In this document: positions 16,188 through 58,600 of the stretch, in pieces | Layout of the letters: each line of letters starts with the position of its first letter | Position numbering within the stretch: position 1 is the first letter of the stretch | NCBI GenBank assembly: GCA_973895155.1 | Contig: OZ316896.1 | Coordinates: forward strand, 7,263,278 to 7,327,277 | Length of the DNA: 64,000 bases | Source of the DNA: Marsupella aquatica | Lineage: Eukaryota; Plantae; Marchantiophyta | Reading direction: 5' to 3' | Program-made: the position numbers and the translations under genes | The notes under the pieces: model-generated | Told to the model about the DNA's origin: nothing | Databases searched by the model: none | Seen by the model: only the letters and a program-made list of their open reading frames with translations

Positions 16188-16369
16188 AGCACGGCTTCAG
16201 CTTAGCTCAGGTCAGCACGGCTTCAGCTTAGCTTAGGTAAGCACGGCTTTAGCTTAGCTCAGGTAAGAACGGCTTCAGCTTAGCTCAGGTCAGCACGGCT
16301 TCAGCTTAGCTCAGGTCAGCACGGCTTCAGCTTAGCTCAGGTCAGCGCGGCCTCAGGTTAGCATAGGTA
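16188..16369 (+). repeat. 26-bp tandem repeat, ~7 copies
   Basis: Unit AGCACGGCTTCAGCTTAGCTCAGGTC, head-to-tail with no spacers. Confidence 0.9.
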
Positions 16370-23709: not shown

Positions 23710-23947
23710 GGAAGAAAAGTCTATGGTAATATGGAGCTTATATCAGTCAAACATGGGAACTTCACGTTAACAGATCCATTTGTATAAGACATAAAACACA
23801 GTCGACATAGGATCCGTTGGCGACATAAATGATTTTTGTCATTTTTCCTCGATAAGTCTGAATGTCAGACGCATACATAATGCCAAAAAAGACACCACAA
23901 AAATCTTTAACAAACTCTAAGATATTGTATAGTTGGAACAATTTGAG

Positions 23948-26503: not shown

Positions 26504-28261
26504 AGGCTAATCGCCGTTGAACGAGTAATCGTTTTTTGGAACATTAGTGAACCAGAAGATCCATTGAATGTTTATCATGTGACATCAGAATTTAGAAGCT
26601 TAACCGTTGGCAGTTCAAAAACCACGACCCCAACCACCAATCGCTTACAGAGATGTCCGATGTAGTAGTCTCAGTTGAATAGAGTATACCAACCGGAAAC
26701 CACGGATTGCGGTTTAGTAACCGCAAAACCACAATTTATTAACTGCTATGCAGTTATGTTCGATTAGTAAGTTAGATAACCATTTTTGTTAGTCGGACAG
26801 TTTGAAGACCGATAATTTTGCCGGAAGATAGTATTTAAGACAGGCAAGAGCGTAGAGTAGAGTGTCACTTTTGCAATAGGTAATCTGATTGAAAGGCGAA
26901 GCCAGACTTTCCTTAAGATGATCAGTAGATCTGTTTAAGTGTTCCCTACTCAGATGTGAGTAGAATTTTCGATGTTGAGAAGTAAAGAAATCATTATGAC
27001 ACAACCTGATGAATTGTTCGTGGATGAGTACCTTGTTGAGAGTCTACAGAAGAGATGGTGATTGACTATGAGATTATGAATTGAGAGTGAAGGGATTCAG
27101 AATTGAGGAGAGGAAAAATTAAAGAGAAGATTGAGTAAGACAATCGGAATTATAAAGAGAGTTGAATCTGTTAAAGTTATAAACCGAGGATTAGACAGAA
27201 GTATGTTAAGACGGTCATATTCCGATCGCAAGAATGAATGAGGATTAATTCACTCAGAGTGAACACATTGAGGAGTAACACCTTACGGAATCAAACCAAC
27301 AGACAACTTATAAGCAGTGGAGTCTGGCTAAAGTGTGTGTGTTTCAAGAATGACAATCTAATTGTCATACACCTGTAGCATAACGGAGTAATCGTTGAAT
27401 TGACATTCTACTTACGAATAGCCTTTCTTGATCTACTTCGTAACATAAGTAATTGATCGAATCCCTGGTGGGAGTATCAATGAGACGATTGGATCGAATC
27501 AGATCACAATCACTGGAAGTATGAATACTAGCTGTGGTGCGTCCCATGGCTCTCCAAACCCAAGAAAATCCCCTTGCTCAAGCCGATTCCCGCAGGTTTC
27601 GTCCTCGGCTTAGCGGCATGGGACGCTGCTAATTTCTCCTTCTACTACTATTAACATTTTACACACATATACTGGACAAATCCTTCATCGGGTCATGAGA
27701 TACTTAGCCGGCCTATTCTAGGCCTTCCCTTGTATTCCTCTCCTGGTCTTCCCTTAGGTATGTTTGGATTTCGCCGCCGGAATGATCCCCAATTGGCTTG
27801 GTTAAGCCGCTAAGACCTCTCTCAGCTCGACACATCCAACTCTCACTTGCTACTTCCCTTCATTGATGTGGGCACTCTTCACACAAGTTAATGCGACACA
27901 CAAATAGCAAAATGACTCCTTCTGACTGAGTTATACCATGCACTTGCCATACAAACAGTACATCTCATACCCAAGCTCTGCGAACTAAGCCGTGAGGCCA
28001 ACTCTATTCAGTTCTTAGGCATGAGGAAACATGAATATACACAAGGGTCACTGTATAACTAACCGAGAGCTTCTCTTACTACTTGATCCTAGCCCTACTG
28101 GTGCAACTAAAAATTTGCTAAAGAAGAGGCCCTGGACTCCCCACTGCCCAGGTATTTATCCTGGCAGCGGATCTGTCCAGAACTTTGCTGCGTAAGCTTA
28201 ATCTATCCTACCTATAATCTATCTAACTGTACAGCGAGGCAGGAGCACAAATGTTGCTCCT

Positions 28262-31200
28262 TGTGATGCCTAGACAGGAATCACTCGGCCGGTTAAGTGG
28301 GTAAAGCAGGAAGGCACCCTAGGAACACCTTAGTATAGGGACAAAACAAGGAAAATATAAACAATTAGGGGCAACCATGGAACCCGGGCAGAGGCCGGAG
28401 GTAAGGCTGAGGGTGAAAACCCGATTAGGGTTAGGGCGCGTTAAGCGTCGGCGGCTAGGAAGGATCAACGGGAAGAAGGACCGGCAGAGGAGAGGGGTAA
28501 GGAGCGCTTGCAGGAGATGGTGGCTCATTTGCGAGCACGAACTAGGCAGACGACTACGGGAGGCCAACTACTGTCAGCTGCTTAGGCAAGCACTCGGGGA
28601 GAGAGTAGATACCGACGATCGACCTAAGGAGGGTATGAGCAACGTCAATCAAGCGGCACATTTCTGGGGATGCCTGTTTGAACGGGCAACTGAGTACATC
28701 AAGACTTACGAGGACGAGGAGTCAGAAAGGGCAGCTCGAGAACGGCAGGAGCTCGCTCGATTGTGGGAGCTGCAGAAGACGGCTTTCTTAGGAGGCGAAC
28801 TCATCAAGGACGAGTTCCTGTGGACGCCTACTTCCAATCAACTCGACGATCTTCTGTTTTGCAAAGACAGCGTCATCGGCATCCGAGAGGCCATCAAGAA
28901 CTGCAACGACATACACTGGGAATTAAAGGGTAGCACGGAAAGGTGGACCCAGGCAACGGTGCTAGGAGAAACCTCCACGGCAGCAGAGATGAAGAGGAAG
29001 GGGGCCGTCAACGATGAAGCCACCCCGGCAAAAAGAACGAGGTCGGCGGCACCAAAGAGGCCAGCCGAGCAGCAGAGCAGGAGGCAGGGAGAAGCCGAAG
29101 AGGAGGAGGTCGATCCCATCAAGGCCATTCCAACCAGGGATGACACCTGGAAGGGCTGGGCGGCAACCCTACCGGTGGAGGTGCAACTACATTTTGCACG
29201 GGAGGAGGATGCATGCTTTACAGCCATGCAGACCAAGAGGTACCAAGGCTTCATGGCCGGATCCGGCTTGGAGGCCTTTGTAAGATTACCATGGCTGAAG
29301 CCAGAGGTACCGGAGTCAGACCTATTAGAATTCGTGGGGTCATGGGAACCCGAGACCAATTGCACGAGGATATATGGGAAGGATTTCTATCTTACTCCCA
29401 AGGTAATTGCCGAAGTGTTTGGCTTGCCGATAGGCAATAAGACCAAAGTTGATACCAGGAAGACCTTGCCTGACAAGGAGTTTCGGTCGTTCCCCGGGCC
29501 ATCAACGAAGAATGGCTTCTTCCGGAACACCTGCACCAACCCGCACATAGGAGAGATGATCGACTTCTTGCGGGTGACCATGCATTGTAACTTGCCGAGG
29601 GCAGAGATCGGCAAGGCACAGGTCTATCTGGCAGAAAGGCCAGACCCAAGCCGGGACTACAACGGGTACCTCCTCAACCAATTGAAGAAGATCTTAAAGG
29701 AGGAGCAGCAGGTAATCGGCATGGGGAGCGTGTCGCGGCTTGGCTATCACATGCCGCTGTTGTGCCGGTATGCCAGAGGTCAGACTTTTGCCCCGGTACT
29801 TCCCCTGCAGGTAAGGGCACCCGAGGAAGCTCCAACGCCGAGGCCGTTGGCTGAGAAGCCTCAACCACCTGTTAGTCCTACGATCGAGCAGGTGTTTAGG
29901 CCCAGGAAGGAAGACTTGCCGATGCAGCAACCAGGCATGCAGAGTCTGCTGAAACTACTGGAGAAAGAAAAGAAATCGGCATCGGCAACAACAACGGCAA
30001 TGACAACAATGCAGGACACTACTACAGAGGTAGGCCTACACCGGCTCACAAGAGAAAACCCCTTTGCTGGAGACAAGGAGAGAATCAGGCCGGAATCCAA
30101 GCCAGGTGTTCGAATGTACGTGGGAACCTCAAGCTCCGAATCTGAGGCAGAATTGCCTGAAGCTCCTACCAACGAAGAGGAGAGGGAGAAGCCGGACGTC
30201 CAAGAGGTAGAGGAGGCAGTGGAGGACTGCAGCCATGATAATTCCGGCTATGGGTCGGACCATCACGTTCCAGGAGTAAGGACCTGTGGCCGGTTTGTCA
30301 GACGGTGCAGGAATTTCAGGAGCGAATCAAGCAGAAGGAAGAGGCCGCCCTGGCTAAGGAAAAGGATTTACCAGGAGGAGATTGGCCGGAGGACATCAGG
30401 CGGCTAGCCGAAAAAGGAAGCAAACCTCTAGCCACGATTGAAGAGATCCGCAGGACGGCTTGGGAGCAGAGGCCACGATGGGTGATGCCGATCACTTCTA
30501 CTTACTCCACCTACGCTAAGAATAGAGCCATGGAGTATGGTGAGATGTGTGGGGAACTTGCGCTCGGCATCTTTGGAGAGGAGTTGGAGGTAGGACCCTT
30601 TTTCCATAGGGAGCAGTTGGAGAAGCACCAATTAGAAGAAGCGGTGGCTTTAGAGAGAAGCAAGAAGGACGAGGTCATTCGGCGGCTTAGGAGGATGGAA
30701 GCCGAGATTGAAGATCTAAGGGCGGCCAAGAAAGCCCAAGATGAACTGCGGATTAAACGACATGAGCTGAACATCATGCAGGGGCAGTTGGACACCGCGC
30801 AGGCTGATAATCAGAATATCAAGGATAAACTGACTCAGACGCAGGAAGAGTTGGCCGACACGATCAAAGAGAGGGAGAAGTGGAAGCAAGAGCTGAAGAA
30901 TACAGAGGAGGCCCACATAACAGCCAACAGCCGGGCCATGGCGGAGACCCAAAGAAAGGAATGGGCGTTGAAAGGGGAGCTCGAGAAAATCCGCGGAGCC
31001 CTTGAGCAGAAGGAGGTCGAGTTAGGGAAATCCTATCAAGGGATTATGGCGCTGCAGCAGGAGCTTGCGTCCCTGACGGCCAGCTTCAAGGCCGACCTAA
31101 GGGAGAAGGACGAGATGCTCGAACAGACTTACGCCAAGATGAACCAGATGGAGTCTGTCATCATTGCAGAGCTCGACAAGGAGCTAAGAGCAACCCAGGA

Positions 31201-32797
31201 GGAGAGGGCTACCTTGAAGAAGGAATTGGAGGAAGCCCACAGGGAGCAGGAGGAGGCCAAAAACGAGCTGGAGGGGGCACGTAAGGACCTGGATGAAACC
31301 CAAGAGGAGTTGGAGGAAATCACAAGGAAGATGGAGAACCTACAGCGGCGGGCCGACAACCAAACAGAGCGGCTGAAGAAACAAGCCGCAGTATTTAAAT
31401 GCTTAGCTGCAGCAGGTCCATCTCCCGTTGGGACAAACCAGTTACCAGGGGTGGTAATTGCCGAAGGACAAGCCGCGCCAACTGCACCAGTGCCGGAAGT
31501 AAGTGGGAAGGGGAAGGGACCAGCTGCCGAGCCACCAACGAAGAAGAAGCAGAAACCTTCAGGGTCAAGGAGTAATACGACTTCACAGGCCGTGGTGATC
31601 AAGGAGGTAGACCCAGCACCGACCCCAGACAGGGTCACGGCTAAGGATCCAACTACCCTAGGGGAAGGGGAGGCCGAAGCCGTGCGAGTGGCTGAGGCCG
31701 AAGCCGTGGGTATTGCCGAGGCCGGTGTCGAGGCTGAAGCCAAAGGTGGACCCAGTCAGGCCGATGGAGAGTTGACTCAGTCAAGGGCAGGTAATCTGTC
31801 AGAGAATGAACCTACGGCAGTGGCTGAGGAGGAAGCGTTGGGGGCGTCCATTAAGGATCCACCACCGGTGTCGTGACGGTGCAAGGGCGCCGTTCCTTTT
31901 AGGGAGGGCGGACGTGGAGGGAGGAGGCGTGAGTGGGCAGGGTGGGCGCGGATCTCCACGTTTAGGATTAGGATCAGAACCAGGAGCGGCCCTGACACTT
32001 AGCTTAGTGGGATTGCGGTCCCACTGGTAGGAGCAACACTTGTGCTCCTGCCTTGCTGTACATAGGTAGATTCGGGCAAGTAGATTACTGTTAAGTAGAT
32101 TAGGCTTACGATGCAAAGAATGGCGGATCCACTACCAGGATAAGTACCTGGGCAGCGGGGAGCTCAGGGCCTCTTCTTTAGCAAGTTTTTAGTTTGCACC
32201 AGCCGGGCTGGGATCAAGTAGTACGAGAAGCTCTCGGTTAGTCATACAGTGACCGTTGTATATATTCATGTTTCCTCATGCCTAAGAGCTGAATAGAGTT
32301 GGCCTCACGGCTTAGTTCGCAGAACTTGTGTATGAGATGTACTGTTTGTATGGCAAGTGCATGGTATGACTCAGTCAGAATGAGTCATTTTGCTATTTGT
32401 GTGTCGCATTAACTTGTGTGAAGAGTGCCCACATCAACAGAAGGAAGGAAAGTAAGCAGGGGAGTGAGAGTTGGATGTGTCGAGCTGAGAGAGGTCTTAG
32501 CGGCTTAACCAAGCCTATTGGGGATCATTCCGGCGGCGGAATCCAAACATACCTAACAAGACGGAGGGGAAGACAGGGGAAGACAGGGGAAGGCCTATAT
32601 TAGGCCGGCTACGTATCTCATGACCCGATGAAGGATCTGTCCAGTATATGTGTGTAAAATGTTAATAGTAGTAGTAGAAGGTTAGCAGCGTCCCATGCCG
32701 CTAAGCCACGGAAACAGCCTCGCCAAGCACGAAACCTGCGGGAATCGGCTTGAGCTGGGGGGTTTCTTGGGTTTAGGGAGCCATGGGACGCACCACA
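28262..32797 (+). mobile_element. Solo LTR of family 2 (4536 bp)
   Basis: Ends TGTGATGC...GCACCACA; CTCCT TSD at 28257-28261 and 32798-32802. Near-identical reverse complement of 45015-49669; no gag or pol. Confidence 0.95.
28377..31876 (+). pseudogene. LTR-encoded PMD-like/coiled-coil ORF, broken by one 100-bp deletion at ~30300
   Basis: ORFs 28377-30407 and 30305-31876 join if the 100 bp present at 47533-47632 are restored (~1199 aa). LLEFVGSWEPET...LTPKVIAEVFGLPIG resembles the plant mobile domain motif; a long E/K/Q/L-rich coiled coil follows. Confidence 0.85.
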
Positions 32798-35786
32798 CTC
32801 CTACCAGTGGATCCGCCATCCCACTAATCTAAGTGTTAGGGCCGTCTCCTGGTCTTGATCCTAATCCTAAACTTGGAGATCTGAGTCCGCCCTGCCCATT
32901 CACGCCTCCTACCTCCATGTCCGCCCTTCCTAAAAGGAACGGCGCCCTTGCACCGTCACGACACCGGTGGCGGATCCTCAATGGACGCCCCCAACGCTTC
33001 CCCCGTAGCCATTGCTGTCGGTCCGTCCTCTGACAGATTACCTGCCCCGGACCGAGTCAACTCTTCATCGGCTTGACTGGGTCCACCTTCGGCTTTGGCC
33101 CCAGCATCGGTCAGGGCCTTTGATACGGCTTCGGCCTCCCCGACTTGTTCTAGTGGAGGATCCGGTACCTCGGCTTCATCAATAGCTATCCCAGCCTTGG
33201 CCTTGCCATCCCCACCCTCTTCAACAGGTGGATCTACTGTCGTGACCATGCCGGAGGTTGGTGCCGGGTTGACCTCCTGGGTCATAACGGCTTGGTAAGC
33301 CGTATAACTTCCAGACCCAAAAGGTTTCCACTTCTTCTTCTTCCTTGTTTCGGTAGCTGGTCCCTTCCCTTTGCTACCTACCTCCGGCACCGGGGCGTGT
33401 GTCTCGGCTTGTCCTTCAGTCAGTACCCCTCCTGGTAACGGAGTTCCCAAAATTGGAATTGGACCAGATGAAGCTAAGCACTTAAATATTGCAGCCTGTT
33501 TCTTCAGCCGCTCCGTTTGGTTGTTGGCCCGCCGCTGTAAGTTCTCCATCTTCCTGGTGGTTTCCTTCAATTCCTCCTGGGCTTCCTCCAGGTCCTTCCG
33601 TCCCTCCTGCAACTCCTTTCTGGCTTCCTCCAATTCCAATTTTAAGGTAGCCCTCTCCTCCTGCGTTGCTCTTAGCTCCTTGTCGAGCTCCGTTACGACC
33701 TTAGACTCCATCTTATTCATCTTGGCATAAGTCTGGTCAAGCTGGTCGTCCTTCTCACGCAGGTCGGCCTTGAAGCTGGCCGTCAAGGATGCAAGCTCCT
33801 GCTACAGCGCAATAATCCCTTGATAGGATTTCCCTAACTTGGCCTCCTTCTGCTCAAGGGCTCCGTGGATATCCTCGAGCTCTCCTTTCAACGCCCTCTC
33901 CCTTCTCTGAGTCTCCGCCATGGCCCGGTTGTTGGCGGTTATGTGGGCCTCCTCTGCGTCCCTCAGCTCCTACTTCCACTTTTCCCTGTCCTTGACCGTG
34001 CCGGCCAACTCTCCTTGGGTCCGAGTCAGTTTATCTTTGATAATCTGATTGCCAGACTTAGCGGCATCCAATTGTCCTTGCATGATGTTTAGCTCATGCC
34101 GCTTAATCTGCAGCTCATCTTGGGCTTTCTTGGCCGCCTGCAGGTCTTCCACCTCGGCTTCCATCTCCCTAAGCCGTTGGATGACCTCGTCCTTGCTTCT
34201 CTCCAAAGCCACCGCTTCTTCTAATTGGTGCTTCTCCAACATCTCCCTCTGGAAAAAGGGTCCCTGCTCCAACTCCTCCCCAAAGATGCTGAGCGCAAGT
34301 TCCCCACACATCTTCCCGTACTCCATGGCTCTATCTTTAGCATAGGTGGAGTAAGTAGAAGTCATCGGCAACAACCACCTCGGCCTCTATTCCCAAGCCG
34401 CCTTGCGGATTTCTTTTACGGTGGCAAGACGGTTGCTTCTTTTTTCGGCAAGCCGCCTGATGTCCTCTGGCCAATCTCCTCCTGGTAAATCTTTCTCCCT
34501 AGCCAGGGCTGCTTTCTCTTCCTCCCTAAGTCGCTCCTGAAATTCTTGTGCCGTCTGCTTTATGCCGTCAAAGCTCGGGGGAGCAACCTCTGGTGGGGGA
34601 GACTCGGGGCTACTCTGCTGGGTGGGGTCCCCTCGAACTACACTTTAAATCAGCCACAGGTCCTTACTCCTGGAACATGATGATCCGACCCATAGTCGGA
34701 GTTATCATTGCTGTAGTCCTCCATCGCCTCCTCCACTGCTTGGACTCCCGGCTTCCCCCTCTGTTCCCCTGGTCCTGTCATGAAAACGGCCTCACAGATC
34801 ACGGGCCCTTGTTCCTCCTCTCGGTTCCAGGCTGTCCTCTCCCTCTGCTCTCCGTGGGAAGGAGCCTTAGGCTGCTTTGCCTCCGATTCGGGGCTTGAGG
34901 CTCCCACATACATTCGCACTCCCGGCTTGTGTTCCGGCCCGCTTCTCTCCTTGGCTCCGGTAAAGGGGTTTTCCCTCCTGAGTCGGCTTAGGCCGGCCTC
35001 TGGGGCAGTGTCCTGTACCGGTGTTGTTGCCGTTGCTGGTGCCGTTCTCTCCTTCTCCATTATTTTCAGCAGATTCTGCATGCCTAATTGTTGCATCGGC
35101 AAGTCTTCTTTCCTTGGCCGAAACACTTGCTCGATCGTAGGATTGACAGGCTGGTTGGGCTCTTCTGTTGCCAGCCTCTACTCCAGAACTTCCTCCGGTG
35201 CCCTTGCCGATAGGGGAAGTACTGGGGCAAAGATTTTACTTCTGGCATACCGGCATAACAGCGGCATGTGATAGCCAAGCTGGGACACGCTTCCCACGCC
35301 GATCACCTGCTGTTCCTCCTTCAAGATCTTCTTCAGTTGGTTGAGGAGGTACCCATTGTAATCCCGGCTTGGGTCTAGTTTTTCTGCCAGGTAGACCTGA
35401 GCCTTGCCGATCTCTGCCCTCGGCAAGTTACAATGCATGGTCACCCGCAAGAAATCAATCATCTCTCCGATGTGCGGGTTGGTGCAGGTGTTCCGGAAGA
35501 AGCCATTCTTCGTTGATGGTCCTGGGAACGATCGGAACTCCTTGTCAGGTAAGGCCTTCCTGGTATCAACCTTGGTCTTATTACCCATCGGCAAGCCAAA
35601 CACCTCGACAATCACCCGGGGAGTGAGATAGAAATCCTTCCCATACACCCTTGTGGAATTGATCTCGGGTTCCCATGATCCCACGAATTCTAATAAGTCT
35701 GAGTCCAGCACCTCCGGCTTCAGCCATGGTAATCTTACGAAGGTTTCCAAGCCGGATCCGGCCATGAAGCCCTGGTACTTCTTGGT

Positions 35787-38122
35787 TTTCCAAACCTATT
35801 CTCCTTTCCCTATCCACCGCAAAGATATATCTTCCAAGTTGCTGAGGGGGCAGACCAAACAATGCATACAAATCTTTCACCAAGATTTGAGATGCCATCC
35901 TAACCCCCTCATAAAACTTGCAAGCAATGAATACATGATATTCATTCTCTATACTAGAGCTATCACATAGTTGACAAACCCTCTTTTTCCTGTCAATATC
36001 CTTCCATCTCCCTTGTTCTACTTCAAGGTGGTGTGAGCTTAGTCTATACTGAGCAATAAGTTGTCTAAGTTGTACTGAGATAGTGCTAGATAAGTATTCT
36101 TGTTCTCGATATTTCTTCATGGGGTTCACATCTCTCATGTAGTATTGCTGCCGTGGGCTAGGTTCATGCCAAAGTTTGTGCAAAGCCTTTTGCTCAAGTT
36201 TTGCTCTTAGCTTGGTTGGGTGTGTTGGCCATTCATGTTCAGGAAAATCCCAAGCATGGGCCCACCTGCACACATCTGCATACCACCCTTTAGCTGAAGA
36301 TGAGCGCAAGGCATGAAAAGGAAATCTGTTTTCCTCCAACTCTCTTACACGCATGATGTATTTGAGTGTGTGGAAGAGTGCCTCCACCTCCAAAGGAAAC
36401 AAGCCTGCCTCTGCAAGTGTAAGTGTATATGGGGTTTGACTTGATCCCAAGCTCCATCTCAAGAAATAGCTTTTGCAGCCCCTCAATCTGTTGCCACCCA
36501 GATTTAGACACACCTGCTCCCCAAATTGGTGCTCCATAAAGAATGACTGGTTTCACCAAAGCTCCAAAGAGATGTTTCCTTAACCTCCAAGTGTGTAGAC
36601 CAGCTCTTTTGCATTTGTTCATGAATGCATAAAAAGCTCTGTACCCATTGGCAGCCCTAGATTTTACACATGAGGCCCAACTCAAGTTTTGAGAGAACTC
36701 CACCCCAAGGTATTTGTAGGTCCTCACAAATTCCACCAGATTCCCTTGGAAGTAGAGCTCTGGATTTTGTCGTGTGCCAATGCCCAAACACTTGGTCTTC
36801 TTGAGGTTGACTACCATCCCTGTTGCTTGACAAAACTCCTCCAAGGCATTGAGATGTCTTTGCAAAGCTTCTTGAGCATGAGCAAGTAGGACCACATCAT
36901 CTGCAAATATAAGAAGTTGGAGGACAAACCTACCCAATTGAGTGCCAACTCCACCATGCTCCTCCAAAATGTTGTGTAGCTGATCAATGAAGATGCCAAA
37001 TAGAGTTGGTGAGAGAGGACAACCTTGGATCACCCCAAGAGTGCTCTAGATTTCTTCAGAGGTTTCCTTTGAAAGTTTGATGCGCACTTCTTGGTACAAT
37101 TTAGAAACAGCCAACCTGAGCTCTTCAGGCACTTCCAACTCCACCATCCTATCCCAAAGCTTGGATCGGGAAACTTTGTCAAAGGCCTTGGAGAAGTCCA
37201 CAAACAAGCAAAATAATGGTTTATGTGGAGATTTGGCCTTTTCACACAACACCCTCAAGCAGAGAATGTGATCCATAGTGCTGAATTCTCTCCTAAAACC
37301 TGCTTGTGAAGGTGCCCTTTTCATCTCACTCTCCAACCAAGAGCTTAATCTGGCTTCAAGTAGTCCTCCCAAAACTTTAGCAAAAGTATTGCCTACCATG
37401 ATGGTTCTGTAGTTGTGCACATCGTCCTTGTTGCCTGCCTTGAAGATAGGCACCACTCTTCTGGTCATCCAAGCTTTAGGTAAACCTAAAGCCATTGCTT
37501 GATTCAGCTCATGCACCAAGTTTGTTAATAAAGAGGGTCCTCCCCACAAAAGAAGCTCCAAGTTCAGGCCCAACAGATCTTTAGCTTTCCCATGTTGCAT
37601 GTGGGAAAGATGCACCTTCACCTCCCTCTCTGTAAACTGAATGGTGTCCCCAAGGGGCAAAGGCATGCCACTAGCATCTGGAAAGAAATACAAGGATGTG
37701 ACATAGGTTACCAGGTCCTGGTGATCCAAGGGGGGAGTAGTCTTGCCTGATTGCATTCTCTCCCAAAAACGTTTTGGATGTTTGATGAACTCCTCACATA
37801 GTGATTGTTGATGACTCTTCAAGAAGCACCTCTTCTTGTGTTTGATGAAGTTCTTGTACATAGTGAATGCCAAAAGTCTCTTTTCCCCTGAATGTGATCT
37901 TGCTTGCATCCTTGCTCTAGCACAATCCTCGTCAAACCAAGCCTTCATGTTTTGCTTTCTAGGGGGTTTGGTGGAGAAAGTAGAGGCTGCTGCTTGTACT
38001 ATGACTTCTGAGAGCTCAATCTGATCATCCAGGGTATGGAGAAGATGTTCAAAGTTGGCTTTGAAGATGACTTCTCTATCAGGGTCTAGAAACAGAGGTT
38101 TGGGTACTGGCTTTCTATGCAC
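35787..38122 (-). mobile_element. Non-LTR retrotransposon (LINE) ORF2 fragment, RTE-X-like
   Basis: QAGFR, FVDFSKAFD, QGCPLSPTLF, IFADD, YKYLG, and C-terminal HHLEVEQGRW...CQLC...ENEYHVFIAC. Frameshifted and 5'-truncated; clade call is tentative. Confidence 0.88.
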
Positions 38123-42578: not shown

Positions 42579-45014
42579 GTTGATGTGGGCAATCTTCAAA
42601 CAAGTTAATGCGACACACAAATAGCAAAATGACTCCTTCTGACTGAGTTATACCATGCACTTGCCATACAAACAATATTTTTCATACACAAGATCTGCGA
42701 ACCAAGCCATGAGGCCAACTCTATTCATCTCTTAGGCATGAGGAAACGTGAATATACACAAGGGTCACAGTATAACTAACCAAGAGCTTCTTTTACTACC
42801 TGATCCCAGCCCTGTTGGTGCACTAAAAACTTGCTAAAGAAGAAGGCCTTCAACTCCCCACAGCCCAGGTACTTATCCTGGCAGTGGATCCTCCTAATTC
42901 TTTGCAGCGTAAGCCTAATCTACCTAACTATAATCTACCTATGTACAGCGAGGCAGGAGCACAAGTGTTGCTCTTACCAGTGGATCCGCAATCCCACTAC
43001 TCTAAGTGTCAGGGCCGCCTCCTGGTCCTAATCCTAATTCTAAACTTGGAGATCTGAGCCCACCCTGCCCACTCACGCCTCCTCCCTCCATGTCCGCCCT
43101 CCTTAAAAGGAGCGGCCCTCCACCACCATCATGGTAGCGGTGGTTGATCCTCAATGGACGCCCCCAATGCTTCTTCCGTAGCCACTGCCGTAGGTCCGTC
43201 CTCTGACAAATTACTTGCCCCGGACCGAGTGAACTCTCCATCGGCCTGAGTGGGTCCACCCTCGTCTTTGGTCTCAGCATCGGCCACGGCCTCTAATACG
43301 GCTACGGCCTCCTCGGCATGGTCTAGTGGAGGATCCGATACCCCGGCTTCATCACTGATTGTTCCGACCTTGGCCTTACCATCCCCGCCTTCTAGGGGTG
43401 GATCGATCGTGATCCTGCCTGAGGTTGGCGCTGGTTGTACCTCCTCTGTCACAACGGCTTGAGAAGCCGCATTACTCCCTGACCCAAAAGGTTTCCGCTT
43501 CTTCTTCTTCCCTATTTCGGCAGCTGGTCCCTTCCCCTTGCCACTTATCTCCTGCACCGGTGCGCGAGTGTTGCGGCTTGTCCTTTGGCCAGTACTACTC
43601 CTGGCAACTTGGTTGCCCCAATTGGACTTGATGAAGCCAAGCACTTAAATACTGCGGCTTGTTTCTTTAGCCTAGGTGGAGTGAGTAGAAGTCATCGGCA
43701 TCAACCACTGTGGCCTTTGTTCCCAAGCCGCCTTGCGGATTTCTTCTATCATGGCTGGAGGGCTGCTTCATTTTTCTGCAAGCCACTTGATGTCCTTTGG
43801 CCATTCTCCCCCTGGTAAATCTTTCTCCCTATCCAGGGCTGCCCTCTCTTCCTCCCTGAGTCGCTCCTAAAACTCTTGTGCCATCTGTTTTATGCCGTCA
43901 AAGCTCGGGGGAGTGACATCTGGCAGGGGGGGACTCGGGGCTGTTCTGCTGGGTGGGGTCCCCTCGAACTACTCTTGGAAGCGTGGGGATGAAATGGCCA
44001 CAAGTCCTTATTCCTGGGACATGATGGTCCAACCCGTAACCGGAGTCATCATTGCCGTAGTCCTCCACCGCCTCCTCCACTGCTTGGACTATCGGCTCCC
44101 CCTACTGCTCCCCTGGTCTTGCCGTGAACACGGCCTCTTGCCGATCATAGCTAGCAAGTCCTAGTTCCTCCTCTGGCTTCCAGGTTGTCTTCTCCCTCTG
44201 TTTCCCCTGAACAGGAGCCTTAGGCTCCCTTCCCTCGGCTACAGGACTCGAGGCTCCTACATACATTCAAACCCCCCGGCTTGTGTTCCGGCCTCCTTCT
44301 TTCCTTGGCTTCGGTAAAGGGGTTTTTCTTCATGAGTCGGCTTAGGCCGACCTCTGAAGGAGTGTCTTGTACCTGTGCCGTTGCCGTTGCCATTCTCTTT
44401 TCCCTTCTCCAGCAATTTTAGCAAATTTTGCATGCCTGGTTGCTGCATCGGCAAGTCCTTTGTCTTCGGCCTAAACACCTGCTCGATTGTAGGACTATCA
44501 GGCTGGTTTGGTTTCTTTGTTGTCGGCCTCTATTCCGGAACCTCCTCTGGTGCCCTTGCCTGCAGTGGAAGTACCGAGGCAAAGATTTGACTTCGGGCAT
44601 ACCGGCACAATAGCGGCATGTGATAGCCAAGCTGGGACACGCTTCCCATGCTGATTGCCTACTGTTCCTCCTTCAAGATCTTCTTCAGCTGGGTGAGGAG
44701 ATACCCGTTGTAGTCCCGGCTTGGGTTTGGCCTTTCTGCTAGGTAGACCTATGCCTTGCCAATCTCTGGCCTCGGCAAGTTGCAGTGCATGGTTACCCAC
44801 AAGAAATCGATGATCTCCCCTATGTGCGGGTTGGTGCAAGTGTTCCGAAAGAAGTCATTCTTCATTGATGGCCCTGGGAACGATTGGAACTCCTTGTCTA
44901 GCAAGGTCTTCCGGGTATCTACTTTGGTCTTATTGCCCATCGGCAAGCCAAACACTTCGGCAATCACCCGGGGAGTGAGATAGAAATCCTTCCCATACAC
45001 CCTTGTGGAATTGG

Positions 45015-48000
45015 TGTGGTGCGTCCCATGGCTCCCTAAACCCAAGAAACCCCCCAGCTCAAGCCGATTCCCGCAGGTTTCGTGCTTGGCGAGGCCGTTT
45101 CCGCGGCTTAGCGGCATGGGACGCTGCTAACCTTCTACTACTACTATTAACATTTTACACACATATACTGGACAGATCCTTCATCGGGTCATGAGATACG
45201 TAGCCGGCCTAATATAGGCCTTCCCCTGTCTTCCCCTGTCTTCCCCTCCGTCTTGTTAGGTATGTTAGGATTCCGCCGCCGGAATGATCCCCAATAGGCT
45301 TGGTTAAGCCGCTAAGACCTCTCTCAGCTCGACACATCCAACTCTCACTCCCCTGCTTACTTTCCTTCCTTCTGTTGATGTGGGCACTCTTCACACAAGT
45401 TAATGCGACACACAAATAGCAAAATGACTCATTCTGACTGAGTCATACCATGCACTTGCCATACAAACAGTACATCTCATACACAAGTTCTGCGAACTAA
45501 GCCGTGAGGCCAACTCTATTCAGCTCTTAGGCATGAGGAAACATGAATATACACAAGGGTCACTGTATGACTAACCGAGAGCTTCTCGTACTACTTGATC
45601 CCAGCCCGGCTGGTGCAAACTAAAAACTTGCTAAAGAAGAGGCCCTGAGCTCCCCGCTGCCCAGGTACTTATCCTGGTAGTGGATCCGCCCTTCTTTGCA
45701 TCGTAAGCCTAATCTACTTAACAGTAATCTACTTGCCCGAATCTACCTATGTACAGCAAGGCAGGAGCACAAGTGTTGCTCCTACCAGTGGGACCGCAAT
45801 CCCACTAAGCTAAGTGTCAGGGCCGCTCCTGGTTCTGATCCTAATCCTAAACGTGGAGATCCGTGCCCGCCCTGCCCACTCACGCCTCCTCCCTCCACGT
45901 CCGCCCTCCCTAAAAGGAACGGCGCCCTTGCACCGTCACGACACCGGTGGTGGATCCTCAACGGACGCCCCCAATACTTCCTCCTCAGCCACTGCCGTTG
46001 GCCCGCCTACTGACAGATTACCTGCCCTTGACCGAGTCAACTCTCCATCGGCCTGACTGGGTCCACCTTCGGCTTCAGCCTCGACACCGGCCTCGGCAAT
46101 ACCCACGGCTTCGGCCTCAGCCACTCCCACGGCTTAGGCTTCAGCCACTCCCACGGCTTCGGCTTCCCCTTCCCCTAGGGTAGTTGGATCCTTAGCCGTG
46201 ACCCTGTCTGGGGTCGGTGCTGGGTCTACCTCCTTGATCACCACGGCCTGTGAAGTCGTATTACTCCTTGACCCTGAAGGTTTCCGCTTCTTCTTCGTTG
46301 GTGGCTCGGCAGCTGGTCCCTTCCCCTTCCCACTTACCTCCGGCACTGGTGCAGGTGGCGCGGCTTGTCCTTCGGCAATTACCACCCCTGGTAACTGGTT
46401 TGTCCCAACAGGAGATGGACCTGCTGCAGCTAAGCATTTAAATACTACGGCTTGTTTCTTCAGCCGCTCTGTTTGGTTGTCGGCCCGCCGCTGTAGGTTC
46501 TCCATCTTCCTCGTGATTTCCTCCAACTCCTCTTGGGTTTCATCCAGGTCCTTACGTGCCCCCTCCAACTCGTTTTTGGCCTCCTCCTGCTCCCTGTGGG
46601 CTTCCTCCAATTCCTTCTTCAAGGTAGCCCTCTCCTCCTGGGTTGCTCTTAGCTCCTTGTCGAGCTCTGCAATGATGACAGACTCCATCTGGTTCATCTT
46701 GGCGTAAGTCTGTTCGAGCATCTCGTCCTTCTCCCTTAGGTCGGCCTTGAAGCTGGCCGTCAGGGACGCAAGCTCCTGCTGCAGCGCCATAATCCCTTGA
46801 TAGGATTTCCCTAACTCGACCTCCTTCTGCTCAAGGGCTCCGCGGATTTTCTCGAGCTCCCCTTTCAACGCCCATTCCTTTCTTTGGGTCTCCGCCATGG
46901 CCCGGCTGTTGGCTGTTATGTGGGCCTCCTCTGTATTCTTCAGCTCTTGCTTCCACTTTTCCCTTTCTTTGATCGTGTCGGCCAACTCTTCCTGCGTCTG
47001 AGTCAGTTTATCCTTGATATTCTGATTATCAGCCTGCGCGGCGTCCAACTGCCCCTGCATGATGTTCAGCTCATGTCGTTTAATCCGCAGTTCATCTTGG
47101 GCTTTCTTGGCCGCCCTTAGATCTTCAATCTCGGCTTCCATCCTCCTAAGCCGCCGAATGACCTCGTCCTTCTTGCTTCTCTCTAAAGCCACCGCTTCTT
47201 CTAATTGGTGCTTCTCCAACTGCTCCCTATGGAAAAAGGGTCCTACCTCCAACTCCTCTCCAAAGATGCCGAGCGCAAGTTCCCCACACATCTCACCATA
47301 CTCCATGGCTCTATTCTTAGCGTAGGTGAAGTAGAAGTGATCGGCATCGCCCATCGTGGCCTCTGCTCCCAAGCCATCCTGCGGATCTCTTCAATCGTGG
47401 CTAGAGGTTTGCTTCCTTTTTCGGCTAGCCGCCTGATGTCCTCCGGCCAATCTCCTCCTGGTAAATCCTTTTCCTTAGCCAGGGCGGCCTCTTCCTCCTG
47501 CTTGATTCGCTCCTGAAATTCCTGCACCGTCTGTTTTATGCCGTCGAAGCTCGGGGGAGCAACATCTGGTGGGGGAGACTCAGGGCTACTCTGCTGGTTG
47601 GGGTCCCCTCGTACTACCCTTGGAAGTGTGGGGACAAACCGGCCACAGGTCCTTACTCCTGGAACGTGATGGTCCGACCCATAGCCGGAATTATCATGGC
47701 TGCAGTCCTCCACTGCCTCCTCTACCTCTTGGACGTCCGGCTTCTCCCTCTCCTCTTCGTTGGTAGGAGCTTCAGGCAATTCTGCCTCAGATTCGGAGCT
47801 TGAGGTTCCCACGTACATTCGAACACCTGGCTTGGATTCCGGCCTGATTCTCTCCTTGTCTCCAGCAAAGGGGTTTTCTCTTGTGAGCCGGTGTAGGCCT
47901 ACCTCTGTAGTAGTGTCCTGCATTGTTGCCGTTGCCGTTGTTGTTGCCGATGCCGATTTCTTTTCTTTCTCCAGTAGTTTCAGCAGACTCTGCATGCCTG

Positions 48001-49669
48001 GTTGCTGCATCGGCAAGTCTTCCTTCCTGGGCCTAAACACCTGCTCGATCGTAGGACTACAGGTGGTTGAGGCTTCTCAGCCAACGGCCTCGGCGTTGGA
48101 GCTTCCTCGGGTGCCCTTACCTGCAGGGGAAGTACCGGGGCAAAAGTCTGACCTCTGGCATACCGGCACAACAGCGGCATGTGATAGCCAAGCCGCGACA
48201 CGCTCCCCATGCCGATTACCTGCTGCTCCTCCTTTAAGATCTTCTTCAATTGGTTGAGGAGGTACCCGTTGTAGTCCCGGCTTGGGTCTGGCCTTTCTGC
48301 CAGATAGACCTGTGCTTTGCCGATCTCTGCCCTCGGCAAGTTACAATGCATGGTCACCCGCAAGAAGTCGATCATCTCTCCTATGTGCGGGTTGGTGCAG
48401 GTGTTCCGGAAGAAGCCATTCTTCGTTGATGGCCCGGGGAACGACCGGAACTCCTTGTCAGGCAAGGTCTTCCTGGTATCAACTTTGGTCTTATTGCCCA
48501 TCGGCAAGCCAAACACTTCGGCAATCACCTTGGGAGTAAGATAGAAATCCTTCCCATATATCCTCGTGCAATTGGTCTCGGGTTCCCATGACCCCACGAA
48601 TTCTAATAGGTCTGACTCCGGTACCTCCGGCTTCAGCCATGGTAATCTTACAAAGGCCTCCAAGCCGGATCCGGCCATGAAGCCTTGGTACTTCTTGGTC
48701 TGCATGGCCGTAAAGCATGCATCCTCCTCCCGTGCAAAATGTAGTTGCACCTCCACCGGTAGGGTTGCCGCCCAGCCCTTCCAGGTGTCATCCCTGGTTG
48801 GAATGGCCTTGATGGGATCGACCTCCTCCTCTTCGGCTTCTCCCTGCCTCCTGCTCTGCTGCTCGGCTGGCTTCTTTGGTGCCGCCGACCTCGTTCTTTT
48901 TGCCGGGGTGGCTTCATCGTTGACGGCTCCCTTCCTCTTCATCTCTGCTGCCGTGGAGGTTTCTCCTAGCACCGTTGTCCGGGTCCACCTTTCCGTGCTA
49001 CCCTTTAATTCCCAGTGTATGTCGTTGTAGTTCTTGATGGCCTCTCGGATGCCGACGACGCTGTCTTTGCAAAATAGAAGATCGTCGAGTTGATTGGAAG
49101 TAGGCGTCCACAGGAACTCGTCCTTGATGAGTTCGCCTCCTAAGAAAGCCGTCTTCTGCAGCTCCCACAATCGAGCGAGCTCCAGCCGTTCTCGAGCTGC
49201 CCTTTCTGACTCCTCGTCCTCGTAAGTCTTGATGTACTCAGTTGCCCGTTCGAACAGGCATCCCCAGAAATGTGCCGCTTGATTGACGTTGCTCATACCC
49301 TCCTTAGGTTGATCGTCGGTATCTACTCTCTCCCCGAGTGCTTGCCTAAGCAGCTGACAGTAGTTGGCCTCCCGTAGTCGTCTGCCTAGTTCGTGCTCGC
49401 AAATGAGCCACCATCTCCTGCAAGCGCTCCTTACCCCTCTCCTCTGCCGGTCCTTCTTCCCGTTGATCCTTCCTAGCCGCCGACGCTTAACGCGCCCTAA
49501 CCCTAATCGGGTTTTCACCCTCAGCCTTACCTCCGGCCTCTGCCCGGGTTCCATGGTTGCCCCTAATTGTTTATATTTTCCTTGTTTTGTCACTATACTA
49601 AGGTGTTCCTAGGGTGCCTTCCTGCTTTACCCACTTAACCGGCCGAGTGATTCCTGTCTAGGCATCACA
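45015..49669 (-). repeat. 3' LTR (4655 bp)
   Basis: TGTGATGC at 49669 immediately after the PPT; GCACCACA end at 45015. Confidence 0.95.
45936..49554 (-). pseudogene. LTR-encoded PMD-like/coiled-coil ORF, 3' LTR copy
   Basis: ORFs 47980-49593, 47243-48040, 46134-47372 and 45936-46130. A 1-bp deletion (~48059) and a 4-bp deletion (~47330) relative to the solo LTR, plus a private stop at 46134. Confidence 0.85.
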
Positions 49670-52600
49670 TAGCTCCCCACTTAATTGTGAAGCGTCCTCG
49701 CGAACAACTTCATCTTCGTCCATATAGTATTTCTTGAGGCGGTCATAATGGATGCGAACTGGATATACCTCTCCCGTAATGTTGGCCAATTGTACGGAGC
49801 CATTGGGGAACATCATGGTTACTCTAAAGGGTCCTAACCAGCGAGTGTAAAGCTTTCCTGGAAACCTACTATACCTACTGTCATAAAGTAGCACAAGATC
49901 ACCGGTATGAATACTAACTACTTTTAACCTTTTATCATACTGCTGCTTCATGATATTCTGTCTATATTCTACTCTCTCGGCTGAAATCATTCTCGCTTCC
50001 TCTAAAGCTTCTAACCTATATTCTCGCTCCTTTAGGCTCTCCTCCGCTGAGGCTCTTTCCTCAATTGTAACTTGAAATGTCGGTATCTCAAGTTGCATGG
50101 GTACCAGGGCTTCTTGTCCAAAGGTTAAGAAGAAGGGTGTATGACCGGTAGTGGATTTATAGGCCAGATTGTAAGCAAAAACAGCAGCAAACAATTTATC
50201 ATCCCAATCGAGTTTGTTCTGAGCTACTGTTTTGTTCAATATCTTTCCTATGATTCCGTTTGCTCGTTCTGTCAACCCGTTTGCCTTTGGATGGTAGGGA
50301 GTAGTAGGCCTATGTTTAACTAAATACTGCTCATTTAAACGACTAATTATATCATTCAAAAAATGGGTTCCTCTATCACTAACTAATTCTAGGGGTGCTC
50401 CATACCTGGTGAAGATCTGCTCATACATGAATCTAGCCGTAGTAATTGCATCATCCTTCGTTGTTGGTCTGGCCTCTACCCATTTAGTTGCATAATCCGT
50501 AGCCAGGATTATGTACTTGTTCCGTCGAGGGTGGGTCAGTGGTTTCAGAGGTCCAATGTAATCAATACCCCACTTCTCGAATGGTGCCAGAGGTAGAATA
50601 GGGTGCAGTGGATGCCTGGTGGACGCCCTTGGTCCTCCCGCTCGTTGACAAGGATCGCATTGTTTGATAAACTGATAGACATCCTTGTGCAAGGTGGGCC
50701 ACCAGTAACCGGCATTTAATATCTTCTTAGACGTGGTTACTGGGGCAAAATGTCCTCCGGCCTCCTCTCCATGCATGGCCCGTAGGACTCGTTTTACCTC
50801 TCTCTTTTCCAAACACCTTTGAATCGTGCCGTTGATTCCATGCTTGTGCAGTATGCCTTTAATGCACTGATACTGTCTGACCTTCCGCACAAAGACTGCG
50901 GCTTGCTCTCGGCTTAATCCTGGCTGTAATCTGGAAGTGCTGAGAAATTGTAAAATCTCAGGGTACCATGTACCAGCTATTTCCACAACGAATAGCTCCT
51001 CGTCGGGGAATCGATCATCGATGCAATCCGTGGCAGGTTTACCTGTGATCCTTGAAAAGAAGTCGGCATTGGCATGTAACTTTCCCGGCTTGATCCTCAG
51101 CTCATAGTCAAACTCCTGTAATAGCAAAATCCATCTTGCTACTCTGCCTGTAAGGTCCGGCTTATTGACTAGGTACTTCAAACTTTCATGATCAGTATGA
51201 AAGATTACCTTGTACCCTAGTAAATAATGCCTAAACTTTTTACAAGAATAAATGACTCCTAATGCTTCTCTTTCCGTGGTAGAGTAGTTCCGTTCGGCAT
51301 CGGCAAGCTGACGGCTTGCGAAGTATATGGGATGGTCCCTTCCTTTCTCATCCAACTGACTTAGTACTGAGCCAATACAGAAGCCCGAGACATCTACAAA
51401 AACATGAAAATCTTTGTTCCAGTCCGGTGCTATCATGACTGGGGCCTCTACTAACATCTGCTTCAATTCTACCACCGCTGTGACTCGTTCGGGTGTGGGT
51501 TCGAAGTCTGCTCCTGCCTTGAGCATATTGGTTAATGGTAAAGCTAGCTTGGCAAAATCCTTGATGAACCGGCGATAGTAACCAATGCATCCCAAGAAGG
51601 ATCTTACATCCTTTATGTTCTTAGGTTGCATGATATCTAGCCATACTGCTAGCTTACCTTTGTCAATCTCAATGCCCTTCCTTGATACCTTGTGACCTAG
51701 TAGCACCCCCTCGGTTACTGCAAAAAAACATTTATCTGGGTGTAACTTGAGACCCACCTCCCTACATCTCATGAAGGTTTTCCTGAGGTATTTAGCATGT
51801 TTCGATGCCTTCTCGAATACTGCAAAGTCATCAATGAAGATTTCCATGAACTTTCTCAAGTAATCATGAAAAATGTTCACCATTAATCGTTGGAACATAG
51901 CTGGTGCGTTGCAGAGTCCAAACGGCATACGATTGAAGACATAGATCCCCCATTCCGTGATGAAGGCCGTCTTGATTTGGTCTTCCTGCCGAATCCTGAT
52001 TTGGTTATAACCAGAGTATCCATCCATGAATGAATATAGTTCATGACTGGCTACCATGTCTAGTACCATATCAGTAAACGGTAAAGGAAAATGGTCTTTT
52101 AATGTTGCTTCATTCAGCTTCCTGTAATCCTGACAAACCCGGATCTTGGGTTTACCATCGGGTCCAGCTTTCTTGGGAACTATCACAATTGGAGACACCC
52201 AGTCTGAATGCAGGACTGGAGTGATGAATCCAGCTTCCACTAGTTTGTCGATTTCTGTTTTGACCAGCAGGGAATACTTCGGGTTCATCCTTCGAATTGG
52301 TTGTCGAAATGATTTGGCTCCTAACATGAGATCAATTCGATGTTCCCCTAGTGTTGGATCTACTCCCTTTAGATCTTGGTGACTCCATGCAAACACATCC
52401 TGAAATTCAATCAATAAGTCACTGATCTCTTTCTCGAGCTCAGGCGCTAGGTTTCTCCCTAAGTTCAGTTCTCTTCCCTCTCCTAAGTCGAGCTTCCGAT
52501 ATTGCCGTGCTTGGATCATATTAATCTGCTTCTTCAAATTCGGGTCCAGTTCGGCTTCCAGTCTCTCTAATCTCATACCTCCATAAACTGGGATCTCGGC

Positions 52601-52924
52601 TGGACTAGCCGAGTCGGTCCCTTCCTTGGTGTCCATAGATTGTCCCCTTACCGGTCTATTCAGTTTTGAATTAGTGGCCGGCTCCCCTTCCTGCCTTGGC
52701 TCTGGATCGTGTCTGTCCATCTCATCCACCTCTTGCTCCTGCGAGTTAGGCCGTTGTGCTCTCTCGGCTTCTAATAGGGCCTCAATTTGTTCTGCCCTCG
52801 TAATCGGCTTGTATGCCGATCCCTTGGTATTTAATTCCTTGCCGATGATCGATGGCGTTGTGGACCCCGTCGGCTCTGCCACAACGCCTGCAGAAAATCC
52901 ATTGTCCCTGCTACTGCTCCCCAC
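49658..52924 (-). CDS. pol: Pol (RT, RNase H, integrase; no chromodomain), in the -1 frame relative to gag-PR
   Basis: 1088-aa ORF with RVCQDYRKLN, FIDDF, VFVDVSG, HHCC Zn finger, WGIDY, SDRG, NGLTER. Stop codon lies inside the 3' LTR. Confidence 0.95.
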   Translation of the reverse strand: MGSSSRDNGFSAGVVAEPTGSTTPSIIGKELNTKGSAYKPITRAEQIEALLEAERAQRPNSQEQEVDEMDRHDPEPRQEGEPATNSKLNRPVRGQSMDTKEGTDSASPAEIPVYGGMRLERLEAELDPNLKKQINMIQARQYRKLDLGEGRELNLGRNLAPELEKEISDLLIEFQDVFAWSHQDLKGVDPTLGEHRIDLMLGAKSFRQPIRRMNPKYSLLVKTEIDKLVEAGFITPVLHSDWVSPIVIVPKKAGPDGKPKIRVCQDYRKLNEATLKDHFPLPFTDMVLDMVASHELYSFMDGYSGYNQIRIRQEDQIKTAFITEWGIYVFNRMPFGLCNAPAMFQRLMVNIFHDYLRKFMEIFIDDFAVFEKASKHAKYLRKTFMRCREVGLKLHPDKCFFAVTEGVLLGHKVSRKGIEIDKGKLAVWLDIMQPKNIKDVRSFLGCIGYYRRFIKDFAKLALPLTNMLKAGADFEPTPERVTAVVELKQMLVEAPVMIAPDWNKDFHVFVDVSGFCIGSVLSQLDEKGRDHPIYFASRQLADAERNYSTTEREALGVIYSCKKFRHYLLGYKVIFHTDHESLKYLVNKPDLTGRVARWILLLQEFDYELRIKPGKLHANADFFSRITGKPATDCIDDRFPDEELFVVEIAGTWYPEILQFLSTSRLQPGLSREQAAVFVRKVRQYQCIKGILHKHGINGTIQRCLEKREVKRVLRAMHGEEAGGHFAPVTTSKKILNAGYWWPTLHKDVYQFIKQCDPCQRAGGPRASTRHPLHPILPLAPFEKWGIDYIGPLKPLTHPRRNKYIILATDYATKWVEARPTTKDDAITTARFMYEQIFTRYGAPLELVSDRGTHFLNDIISRLNEQYLVKHRPTTPYHPKANGLTERANGIIGKILNKTVAQNKLDWDDKLFAAVFAYNLAYKSTTGHTPFFLTFGQEALVPMQLEIPTFQVTIEERASAEESLKEREYRLEALEEARMISAERVEYRQNIMKQQYDKRLKVVSIHTGDLVLLYDSRYSRFPGKLYTRWLGPFRVTMMFPNGSVQLANITGEVYPVRIHYDRLKKYYMDEDEVVREDASQLSGELCDA
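49670..49682 (-). promoter_or_regulatory. Polypurine tract, inside the integrase coding sequence
   Basis: AAGTGGGGAGCTA abuts the LTR TG; same sequence at 63054-63066. Confidence 0.8.
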
Positions 52925-55632: not shown

Positions 55633-55661
55633 GTCGGTTGGAGACTCACTTCTCCTTACCG

Positions 55662-58600
55662 ACTCTCACTCCCCTGCTTACTTTCCTTCCTTCTGTTGAT
55701 GTGGGCACTCTTCACACAAGTTAATGCGACACACAAATAGCAAAATGACTCATTCTGACTGAGTCATACCATGCACTTGCCATACAAACAGTACATCTCA
55801 TACACAAGTTCTGCGAACTAAGCCGTGAGGCCAACTCTATTCAGCTCTTAGGCATGAGGAAACATGAATATACACAAGGGTCACTGTATGACTAACCGAG
55901 AGCTTCTCGTACTACTTGATCCCAGCCCGGCTGGTGCAAACTAAAAACTTGCTAAAGAAGAGGCCCTGAGCTCCCCGCTGCCCAGGTACTTATCCTGGTA
56001 GTGGATCCGCCCTTCTTTGCATCGTAAGCCTAATCTACTTAACAGTAATCTACTTGCCCGAATCTACCTATGTACAGCAAGGCAGGAGCACAAGTGTTGC
56101 TCCTACCAGTGGGACCGCAATCCCACTAAGCTAAGTGTCAGGGCCGCTCCTGGTTCTGATCCTAATCCTAAACGTGGAGATCCGTGCCCGCCTTGCCCAC
56201 TCACGCCTCCTCCCTCCACGTCCGCCCTCCCTAAAAGGAACGGCGCCCTTGCACCGTCACGACACCGGTGGTGGATCCTCAATGGACGCCCCCAATACTT
56301 CCTCCTCAGCCACTGCCGTTGGCCCGCCTACTGGCAGATTACCTGCCCTTGACCGAGTCAACTCTCCATCGGCCTGACTGGGTCCACCTTCGGCTTCAGC
56401 CTCGACACCGGCCTCGGCAATACCCACGGCTTCGGCCTCAGCCACTCCCACGGCTTCGGCTTCAGCCACTCCCACGGCTTCGGCTTCCCCTTCCCCTAGG
56501 GTAGTTGGATCCTTAGCCGTGACCCTGTCTGGGGTCGGTGCTGGGTCTACCTCCTTGATCACCACGGCCTGTGAAGTCGTATTACTCCTTGACCCTGAAG
56601 GTTTCCGCTTCTTCTTCGTTGGTGGCTCGGCAGCTGGTCCCTTCCCCTTCCCACTTACCTCCGGCACTGGTGCAGGTGGCGCGGCTTGTCCTTCGGCAAT
56701 TACCACCCCTGGTAACTGGTTTGTCCCAACAGGAGATGGACCTGCTGCAGCTAAGCATTTAAATACTGCGGCTTGTTTCTTCAGCCGCTCTGTTTGGTTG
56801 TCGGCCCGCCGCTGTAGGTTCTCCATCTTCCTCGTGATTTCCTCCAACTCCTCTTGGGTTTCATCCAGGTCCTTACGTGCCCCCTCCAGCTCGTTTTTGG
56901 CCTCCTCCTGCTCCCTGTGGGCTTCCTCCAATTCCTTCTTCAAGGTAGCCCTCTCCTCCTGGGTTGCTCTTAGCTCCTTGTCGAGCTCTGCAATGATGAC
57001 AGACTCCATCTGGTTCATCTTGGCGTAAGTCTGTTCGAGCATCTCGTCCTTCTCCCTTAGGTCGGCCTTGAAGCTGGCCGTCAGGGACGCAAGCTCCTGC
57101 TGCAGCGCCATAATCCCTTGATAGGATTTCCCTAACTCGACCTCCTTCTGCTCAAGGGCTCCGCGGATTTTCTCGAGCTCCCCTTTCAACGCCCATTCCT
57201 TTCTTTGGGTCTCCGCCATGGCCCGGCTGTTGGCTGTTATGTGGGCCTCCTCTGTATTCTTCAGCTCTTGCTTCCACTTTTCCCTTTCTTTGATCGTGTC
57301 GGCCAACTCTTCCTGCGTCTGAGTCAGTTTATCCTTGATATTCTGATTATCAGCCTGCGCGGCATCCAACTGCCCCTGCATGATGTTCAGCTCATGTCGT
57401 TTAATCCGCAGTTCATCTTGGGCTTTCTTGGCCGCCCTTAGATCTTCAATCTCGGCTTCCATCCTCCTAAGACGCCGAATGACCTCGTCCTTCTTGCTTC
57501 TCTCTAAAGCCACCGCTTCTTCTAATTGGTGCTTCTCCAACTGCTCCCTATGGAAAAAGGGTCCTACCTCCAACTCCTCTCCAAAGATGCCGAGCGCAAG
57601 TTCCCCACACATCTCACCATACTCCATGGCTCTATTCTTAGCGTAGGTGAAGTAGAAGTGATCGGCATCGCCCATCGTGGCCTCTGCTCCCAAGCCGTCC
57701 TGCGGATCTCTTCAATCGTGGCTAGAGGTTTGCTTCCTTTTTCGGCTAGCCGCCTGATGTCCTCCGGCCAATCTCCTCCTGGTAAATCCTTTTCCTTAGC
57801 CAGGGCGGCCTCTTCCTCCTGCTTGATTCGCTCCTGAAATTCCTGCACCGTCTGTTTTATGCCGTCGAAGCTCGGGGGAGCAACATCTGGTGGGGGAGAC
57901 TCAGGGCTACTCTGCTGGTTGGGGTCCCCTCGTACTACCCTTGGAAGTGTGGGGACAAACCGGCCACAGGTCCTTACTCCTGGAACGTGATGGTCCGACC
58001 CATAGCCGGAATTATCATGGCTGCAGTCCTCCACTGCCTCCTCTACCTCTTGGACGTCCGGCTTCTCCCTCTCCTCTTCGTTGGTAGGAGCTTCAGGCAA
58101 TTCTGCCTCAGATTCGGAGCTTGAGGTTCCCACGTACATTCGAACACCTGGCTTGGATTCCGGCCTGATTCTCTCCTTGTCTCCAGCAAAGGGGTTTTCT
58201 CTTGTGAGCCGGTGTAGGCCTACCTCTGTAGTAGTGTCCTGCATTGTTGCCGTTGCCGTTGTTGTTGCCGATGCCGATTTCTTTTCTTTCTCCAGTAGTT
58301 TCAGCAGACTCTGCATGCCTGGTTGCTGCATCGGCAAGTCTTCCTTCCTGGGCCTAAACACCTGCTCGATCGTAGGACTACAGGTGGTTGAGGCTTCTCA
58401 GCCAACGGCCTCGGCGTTGGAGCTTCCTCGGGTGCCCTTACCTGCAGGGGAAGTACCGGGGCAAAAGTCTGACCTCTGGCATACCGGCACAACAGCGGCA
58501 TGTGATAGCCAAGCCGCGACACGCTCCCCATGCCGGTTACCTGCTGCTCCTCCTTTAAGATCTTCTTCAATTGGTTGAGGAGGTACCCGTTGTAGTCCCG

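Follow-up and report, generated by a model that had tools for sequence, protein, structure and literature searches.

What does recombination between the two long terminal repeats (LTRs) of a retrotransposon leave behind when the element carries a gene inside the repeat itself? This question was raised by a 4536-bp unit at 28262..32797 (plus strand) of a 64,000-nucleotide window, the whole stretch analysed here, from the liverwort Marsupella aquatica (assembly GCA_973895155.1, contig OZ316896.1, positions 7,263,278 to 7,327,277 of the forward strand). The preferred reading, to which a probability of about 0.45 is given as a whole, is that the unit represents a solo LTR from a multi-copy Ty3/gypsy family whose 4.6-kb LTR holds a selected gene. 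This copy of the gene is frameshifted and probably in decay; the gene likely encodes a DNA-binding coiled-coil protein of the PMD/DUF1985 type, which would recognise the word WWGCCG and counter silencing in trans.

The unit begins with TGTGATG at 28262 and ends with CACCACA at 32797, and the 5-mer CTCCT flanks it on both sides (28257..28261 and 32798..32802). The window also contains a full-length element, and the unit aligned with its 3' LTR with 57 mismatches in 4531 aligned bases (98.7% identity), and neither internal repeats nor a gag/pol match was found within it. The insertion lies, in opposite orientation, inside an older LTR of its own family (32798..35789, continuing at 27533-28261, minus strand); since the uninterrupted form of this host LTR holds CTCCT once, the duplication is real. 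Hence, the TG...CA ends, the target-site duplication and the LTR identity described in an earlier, sequence-only reading of the locus were all verified, and recombination between two LTRs, as the standard mechanism, would account for the missing internal region.

Two open frames, 28323-30407 and 30242-31876, were found in the solo LTR, offset by 100 missing bases. The 5' part of the accessory gene runs from a conserved ATG (28635..30407, plus strand), leaves the frame past the deletion site at 30298..30299 (plus strand) and meets a stop at 30407, while the 3' open frame (30242..31876, plus strand), coding from 30299, contains a coiled-coil-like stretch (about 30600-31400) and a low-complexity tail. 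The 100-bp segment is kept in both LTRs of the full-length element, where a natural open reading frame (ORF), 47243-48076, passes through it, beginning in the first frame and continuing in the second. The sequence-only reading, in which this deletion was the sole disruption, was thus right about the deletion and the frame offset; an in-frame 24-bp repeat unit, kept in both full-element LTRs, is missing as well. It had also proposed a whole gene of about 1200 codons, which requires the ATG at 28377. The 86 codons after that ATG are frameshifted and stopped in an older copy, with a ratio of non-synonymous to synonymous substitution rates (dN/dS) of 0.6 (confidence interval 0.34-1.12), and this open in-frame leader (28377..28634, plus strand) is probably a 5' untranslated region. 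Because the ATG at 28635 is conserved in the older copy, the protein was set at about 1,110 amino acids, comprising an N-terminal region, a core, an acidic linker, the coiled coil and the low-complexity tail. In the solo copy the gene is broken, its product reaching at most 590 amino acids and lacking the coiled coil; none of the six LTR copies in the window holds an intact gene.

The gene was nevertheless under purifying selection in the family. Against four older pieces its dN/dS was 0.31, 0.35, 0.22 and 0.35, in comparisons that share the solo lineage; by part, it was 0.10-0.16 in the core, 0.25 in the coiled coil and 0.17-0.40 in the 5' part outside the core. A shifted-frame control gave 0.64-1.6, and the integrase 0.11. 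The 0.22-0.35 across the gene differs from the ratio near 1 that would have counted against the sequence-only reading. The gene lies wholly within the LTR, and the proposal that LTR-LTR recombination leaves it behind was supported.

The full-length element occupies 45015-59990 (minus strand) with the target duplication CCAAT. It consists of a 5' LTR (55659..59990), gag with a zinc knuckle and, in its frame, a protease-like motif (52831..55632), pol encoding reverse transcriptase (RT), RNase H and integrase (49658..52924), and the 3' LTR (45015..49669), in which the accessory gene has -1 and -4 frameshifts; all are on the minus strand. The last 323 bp of the 5' LTR are missing, as are the primer-binding site and the leader. 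The stop codon of pol falls in LTR bases 10-12, with a purine tract directly ahead of the LTR, and 94 bases (52831-52924) are shared by gag and pol, which are read in different frames. The loss from the 5' LTR is a copy-specific deletion, because public contigs extend past the 5-bp overlap at that point (window 55659-55666) in either direction. The zinc knuckle and the RT-RNase H-integrase order assign the element to Ty3/gypsy. No Pfam match to a chromodomain or an extra RNase H was obtained in the full-length element. The absence of both, together with a protease-like motif in the gag frame, corresponds to the Tat layout in the available parts of PMC4408406 and PMC10508981, and it is by this layout alone that the lineage is called OTA-like. 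The same kind of pol/LTR junction occurs at 63054, where the pol of an older element meets its 3' LTR, which is split into three minus-strand pieces (42579..45014, 59991-60522 and 62469-63053). LTR sequence of the family makes up 21,888 of the 64,000 bases, spread over 24870-63053, with two insertions inside older same-family LTRs. Of ten homologues looked up, two were named, both from the liverwort Calypogeia fissa.

Furthermore, a short word was found enriched in the family. A word scan was led by AAGCCG (32 against 7.7 expected) and TGCCGA (27 against 6.8), and their common form, WWGCCG, occurred on both strands (46 and 37). In gag, in pol and in each of the two parts of the LTR gene, it stood about threefold above synonymous shuffles, which preserve the protein and its codon use (0/400 in each region); CG itself was not enriched. 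Words with a GCCG core ranked at the top in the LTR alone and in gag-pol alone, although the gag-pol ranking fails correction. CGs within the motif were better retained in old copies (odds ratio 3.9 with p 0.014, and odds ratio 2.3 with p 0.064, the p values after stratification). In a related Ty3/gypsy family at 1-5800 (minus strand; 67% pol identity, with an open 964-codon pol stretch), ACCAG was enriched instead (22 against 8.4), extending to ACCAG(C), and WWGCCG occurred once; in the young pol, ACCAG was at chance level (94/400) and ACCAGC slightly above it (7/400). A family-specific short motif is therefore present, as in VANC-type systems, in a layout that differs from that of VANDAL transposons.

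The core domain of the protein (29106..29810, plus strand), for which homologues were found, gave weak Atlas and structure leads toward PMD, DUF1985 and VANC, including a weak structural match to VANC (PDB 9lnk). Neither the core nor any of 22 homologues gave a Pfam match to PMD (PF10536) at E<=1, and the PMD identity assigned in the sequence-only reading is left with those leads. On this basis it is weakly suggested that the protein may belong to this fold family, that of VANC21 and MAIL1, and bind DNA, that the family's own dispersed WWGCCG may be its target, and that it may counter the silencing of family copies; it would then act in trans. Several points weigh against this preferred reading: the motif was found post hoc, is short and is clustered in its spacing; it is nearly absent from the integrase end; and it is located in coding DNA, unlike VANDAL targets. 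As a separate observation, the core has a distant homologue in ORF 41614-42309 (minus strand) of an unrelated transposase-linked element, Mutator-like by eye and without a Pfam match; the two are about 27% identical, with a profile E of 1.4e-5 within the window.

The weakness of the fold and family leads leaves considerable room, tentatively, for a real accessory gene with another job, such as particle assembly, nuclear import or integration targeting; the motif would then be a site for a host factor or would arise from mutation and amino-acid use. Plant extra ORFs have no known function (PMC7264820), and three insertions in or beside same-family LTRs could reflect targeting. Against this, the synonymous shuffles fell short of the motif counts, and general CCG retention does not explain the motif, since GCCG (149) far exceeds ACCG, TCCG and CCCG (51, 68 and 51), none of these other contexts being enriched. 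AP2/ERF factors bind the boxes GCCGAC and GCCGCC; no such enrichment of C was found in the bases after GCCG. An env-like role is disfavoured by the lack of a transmembrane stretch in the protein (highest 19-residue Kyte-Doolittle hydropathy 0.7-0.8).

The layout of the LTR is compatible with an independent expression unit. Its sole TATAAA (28356..28361, plus strand), a candidate promoter of the LTR gene, lies in a 25-column run identical in the older copy, a degree of conservation within chance expectation. The non-coding tail (31877..32797, plus strand) is strongly conserved (divergence 0.08-0.11 against a synonymous divergence of 0.40-0.44) and includes a T/TGTA-rich stretch (32257-32350, plus strand) as a candidate 3'-end signal, with four of the nine TGTA words within 32257-32347, at the peak of T content; no AATAAA was found in the solo LTR. 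The leader contains a 22-codon upstream ORF (28517-28585) and two GT donor-like sites (28399 and 28495). This upstream ORF, placed between the donor-like sites and a 30-column conserved run, is kept in the older copy with R/K changes alone across 14 codons. Each LTR may thus be a self-contained cassette of promoter, gene and 3' end. Two arrangements fit equally: a long U3 that contains an internal promoter, and a long R. In its strongest form, in which a VANC-like anti-silencing gene moved into the LTR of a non-seed-plant retrotransposon with its own promoter and 3'-end signal, and LTR-LTR recombination, the main way in which the host purges such elements, leaves expressed cassettes that keep motif-marked copies unsilenced in trans, the preferred reading is unlikely.

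Distinctly unlikely, too, is that solo LTRs serve as a working reservoir, supplying the protein in trans or feeding domestication, as the sequence-only reading had proposed. In its favour are the position of the gene between the TATA box and the T/TGTA-rich stretch, and the first frame of the solo copy, which stays open through the entire core. At all three indel sites, public contigs also show a state that keeps the frame open: contigs from four runs have the solo's state at the sites of the 1-bp and 4-bp losses of the full-length element, and one covers the 100-bp segment gap-free, although no single contig covers the complete gene. Moreover, both frameshifts are common to the two young LTRs of the full-length element, which differ from each other at 21 of 4332 bases; the element therefore likely inserted with its gene already broken, gene conversion being an alternative source of the common frameshifts. 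Insertion with a broken gene implies that the product was supplied in trans or was dispensable, which suggests a gene needed only in trans or not at all. Nevertheless, the solo copy, like all six in the window, is not intact, and its polarised private changes were 13 non-synonymous to 8 synonymous, all transitions and mostly G->A or C->T, near the 34% synonymous expected by chance and similar to the 10 to 5 seen in the two young LTRs among changes that arose strictly after insertion. These small numbers fit neutral decay, so the low dN/dS would reflect the transposing lineage. The retroviral gene sag offers a precedent: in the accessible parts of PMC4667437, its dN/dS is 0.289 across lineages, with no selection after insertion.

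That the unit is a separate mini-element or an assembly artefact, conceivable because the shortened 5' LTR leaves a single complete LTR for comparison, is very improbable, given that both its ends match LTR ends, that it has no internal repeats, that the 5' LTR loss is copy-specific, that it stands 1.3-1.5% and four indels apart from both LTRs of the full-length element, and that six public runs contain at least half of its words.

An LTR-borne gene kept in solo LTRs is not new in principle. The sag gene of mouse mammary tumour virus-like betaretroviruses, located in the LTR U3, likewise survives in solo LTRs, which accounted for 490 of 527 contigs (PMC4667437, accessible parts). However, sag belongs to an animal retrovirus and encodes an unrelated protein, whereas the present gene, of about 1,110 codons, lies wholly within the 4.6-kb LTR of a plant retrotransposon. 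Among plant elements, the extra ORFs of OTA/Tat (Ogre, Retand, Athila) are comparable: they occur in Ty3/gypsy with Gag-protease apart from pol, and combine a PMD-like domain with a coiled coil, evolving faster than pol (available sections of PMC6317226, PMC4408406 and PMC7264820). They are described in the internal region, where reviews place plant extra ORFs (PMC7264820; also the portions available of PMC6317226 and PMC11963269); here the ORF lies in the LTR, twice per element, with pol abutting the LTR and no Pfam PMD match. Retrosat2/RIRE3 also combine LTRs above 3 kb, many solo LTRs and an extra ORF, but this ORF0 lies upstream of gag-pol, is treated apart from the LTR and belongs to a chromovirus-type grass family (PMC3485330, in its accessible text). 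No plant LTR-borne ORF was found in the literature searched, its coverage stopping short of key subscription papers. VANC, as described in the available parts of PMC5735166, is a transposon-encoded accessory protein that acts on other copies and has a short family-specific word differing between related families; trans action is a proposal for the LTR gene. VANC comes from VANDALs, Mutator-like DNA transposons found in dicots, and its targets are 8-9 bases long and lie in non-coding tandem repeats. The present element is a retrotransposon, its 6-base word is spread through coding DNA, and binding and demethylation are putative.

Solo LTRs are regarded as non-coding relics, and the extra ORFs of plant elements as internal genes whose use is unknown. 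In this family each LTR carries a copy of the gene, which persists after recombination; gene-bearing solo LTRs are also open to mis-annotation as host genes. If the VANC-like reading were true, the PMD-plus-coiled-coil ORFs of Ty3/gypsy would gain a testable function and a candidate target word, and sequence-specific anti-silencing would extend from DNA transposons to plant retrotransposons. It would also bear on whether retrotransposons were the source of host PMD genes, a question left open in the accessible part of PMC5418596.

Additionally, other features were recorded in the window. A long interspersed nuclear element (35581-38170, minus strand), with RT and a zf-RVT-like end, adjoins the older host LTR at about 35790. 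Several related DDE-transposase-like ORFs (9200-23750 and 38090-39226; 43-67% mutual identity) had no Pfam match, nor did a 744-codon ORF at 12252-14486, and the words AGCGCC and CGCTAG are enriched in those two regions. The 3' LTR of the older element is split by a 1.9-kb insertion (60523-62468), which has 24-bp tandem repeats close to each end (60854-60982 and 62248-62329).
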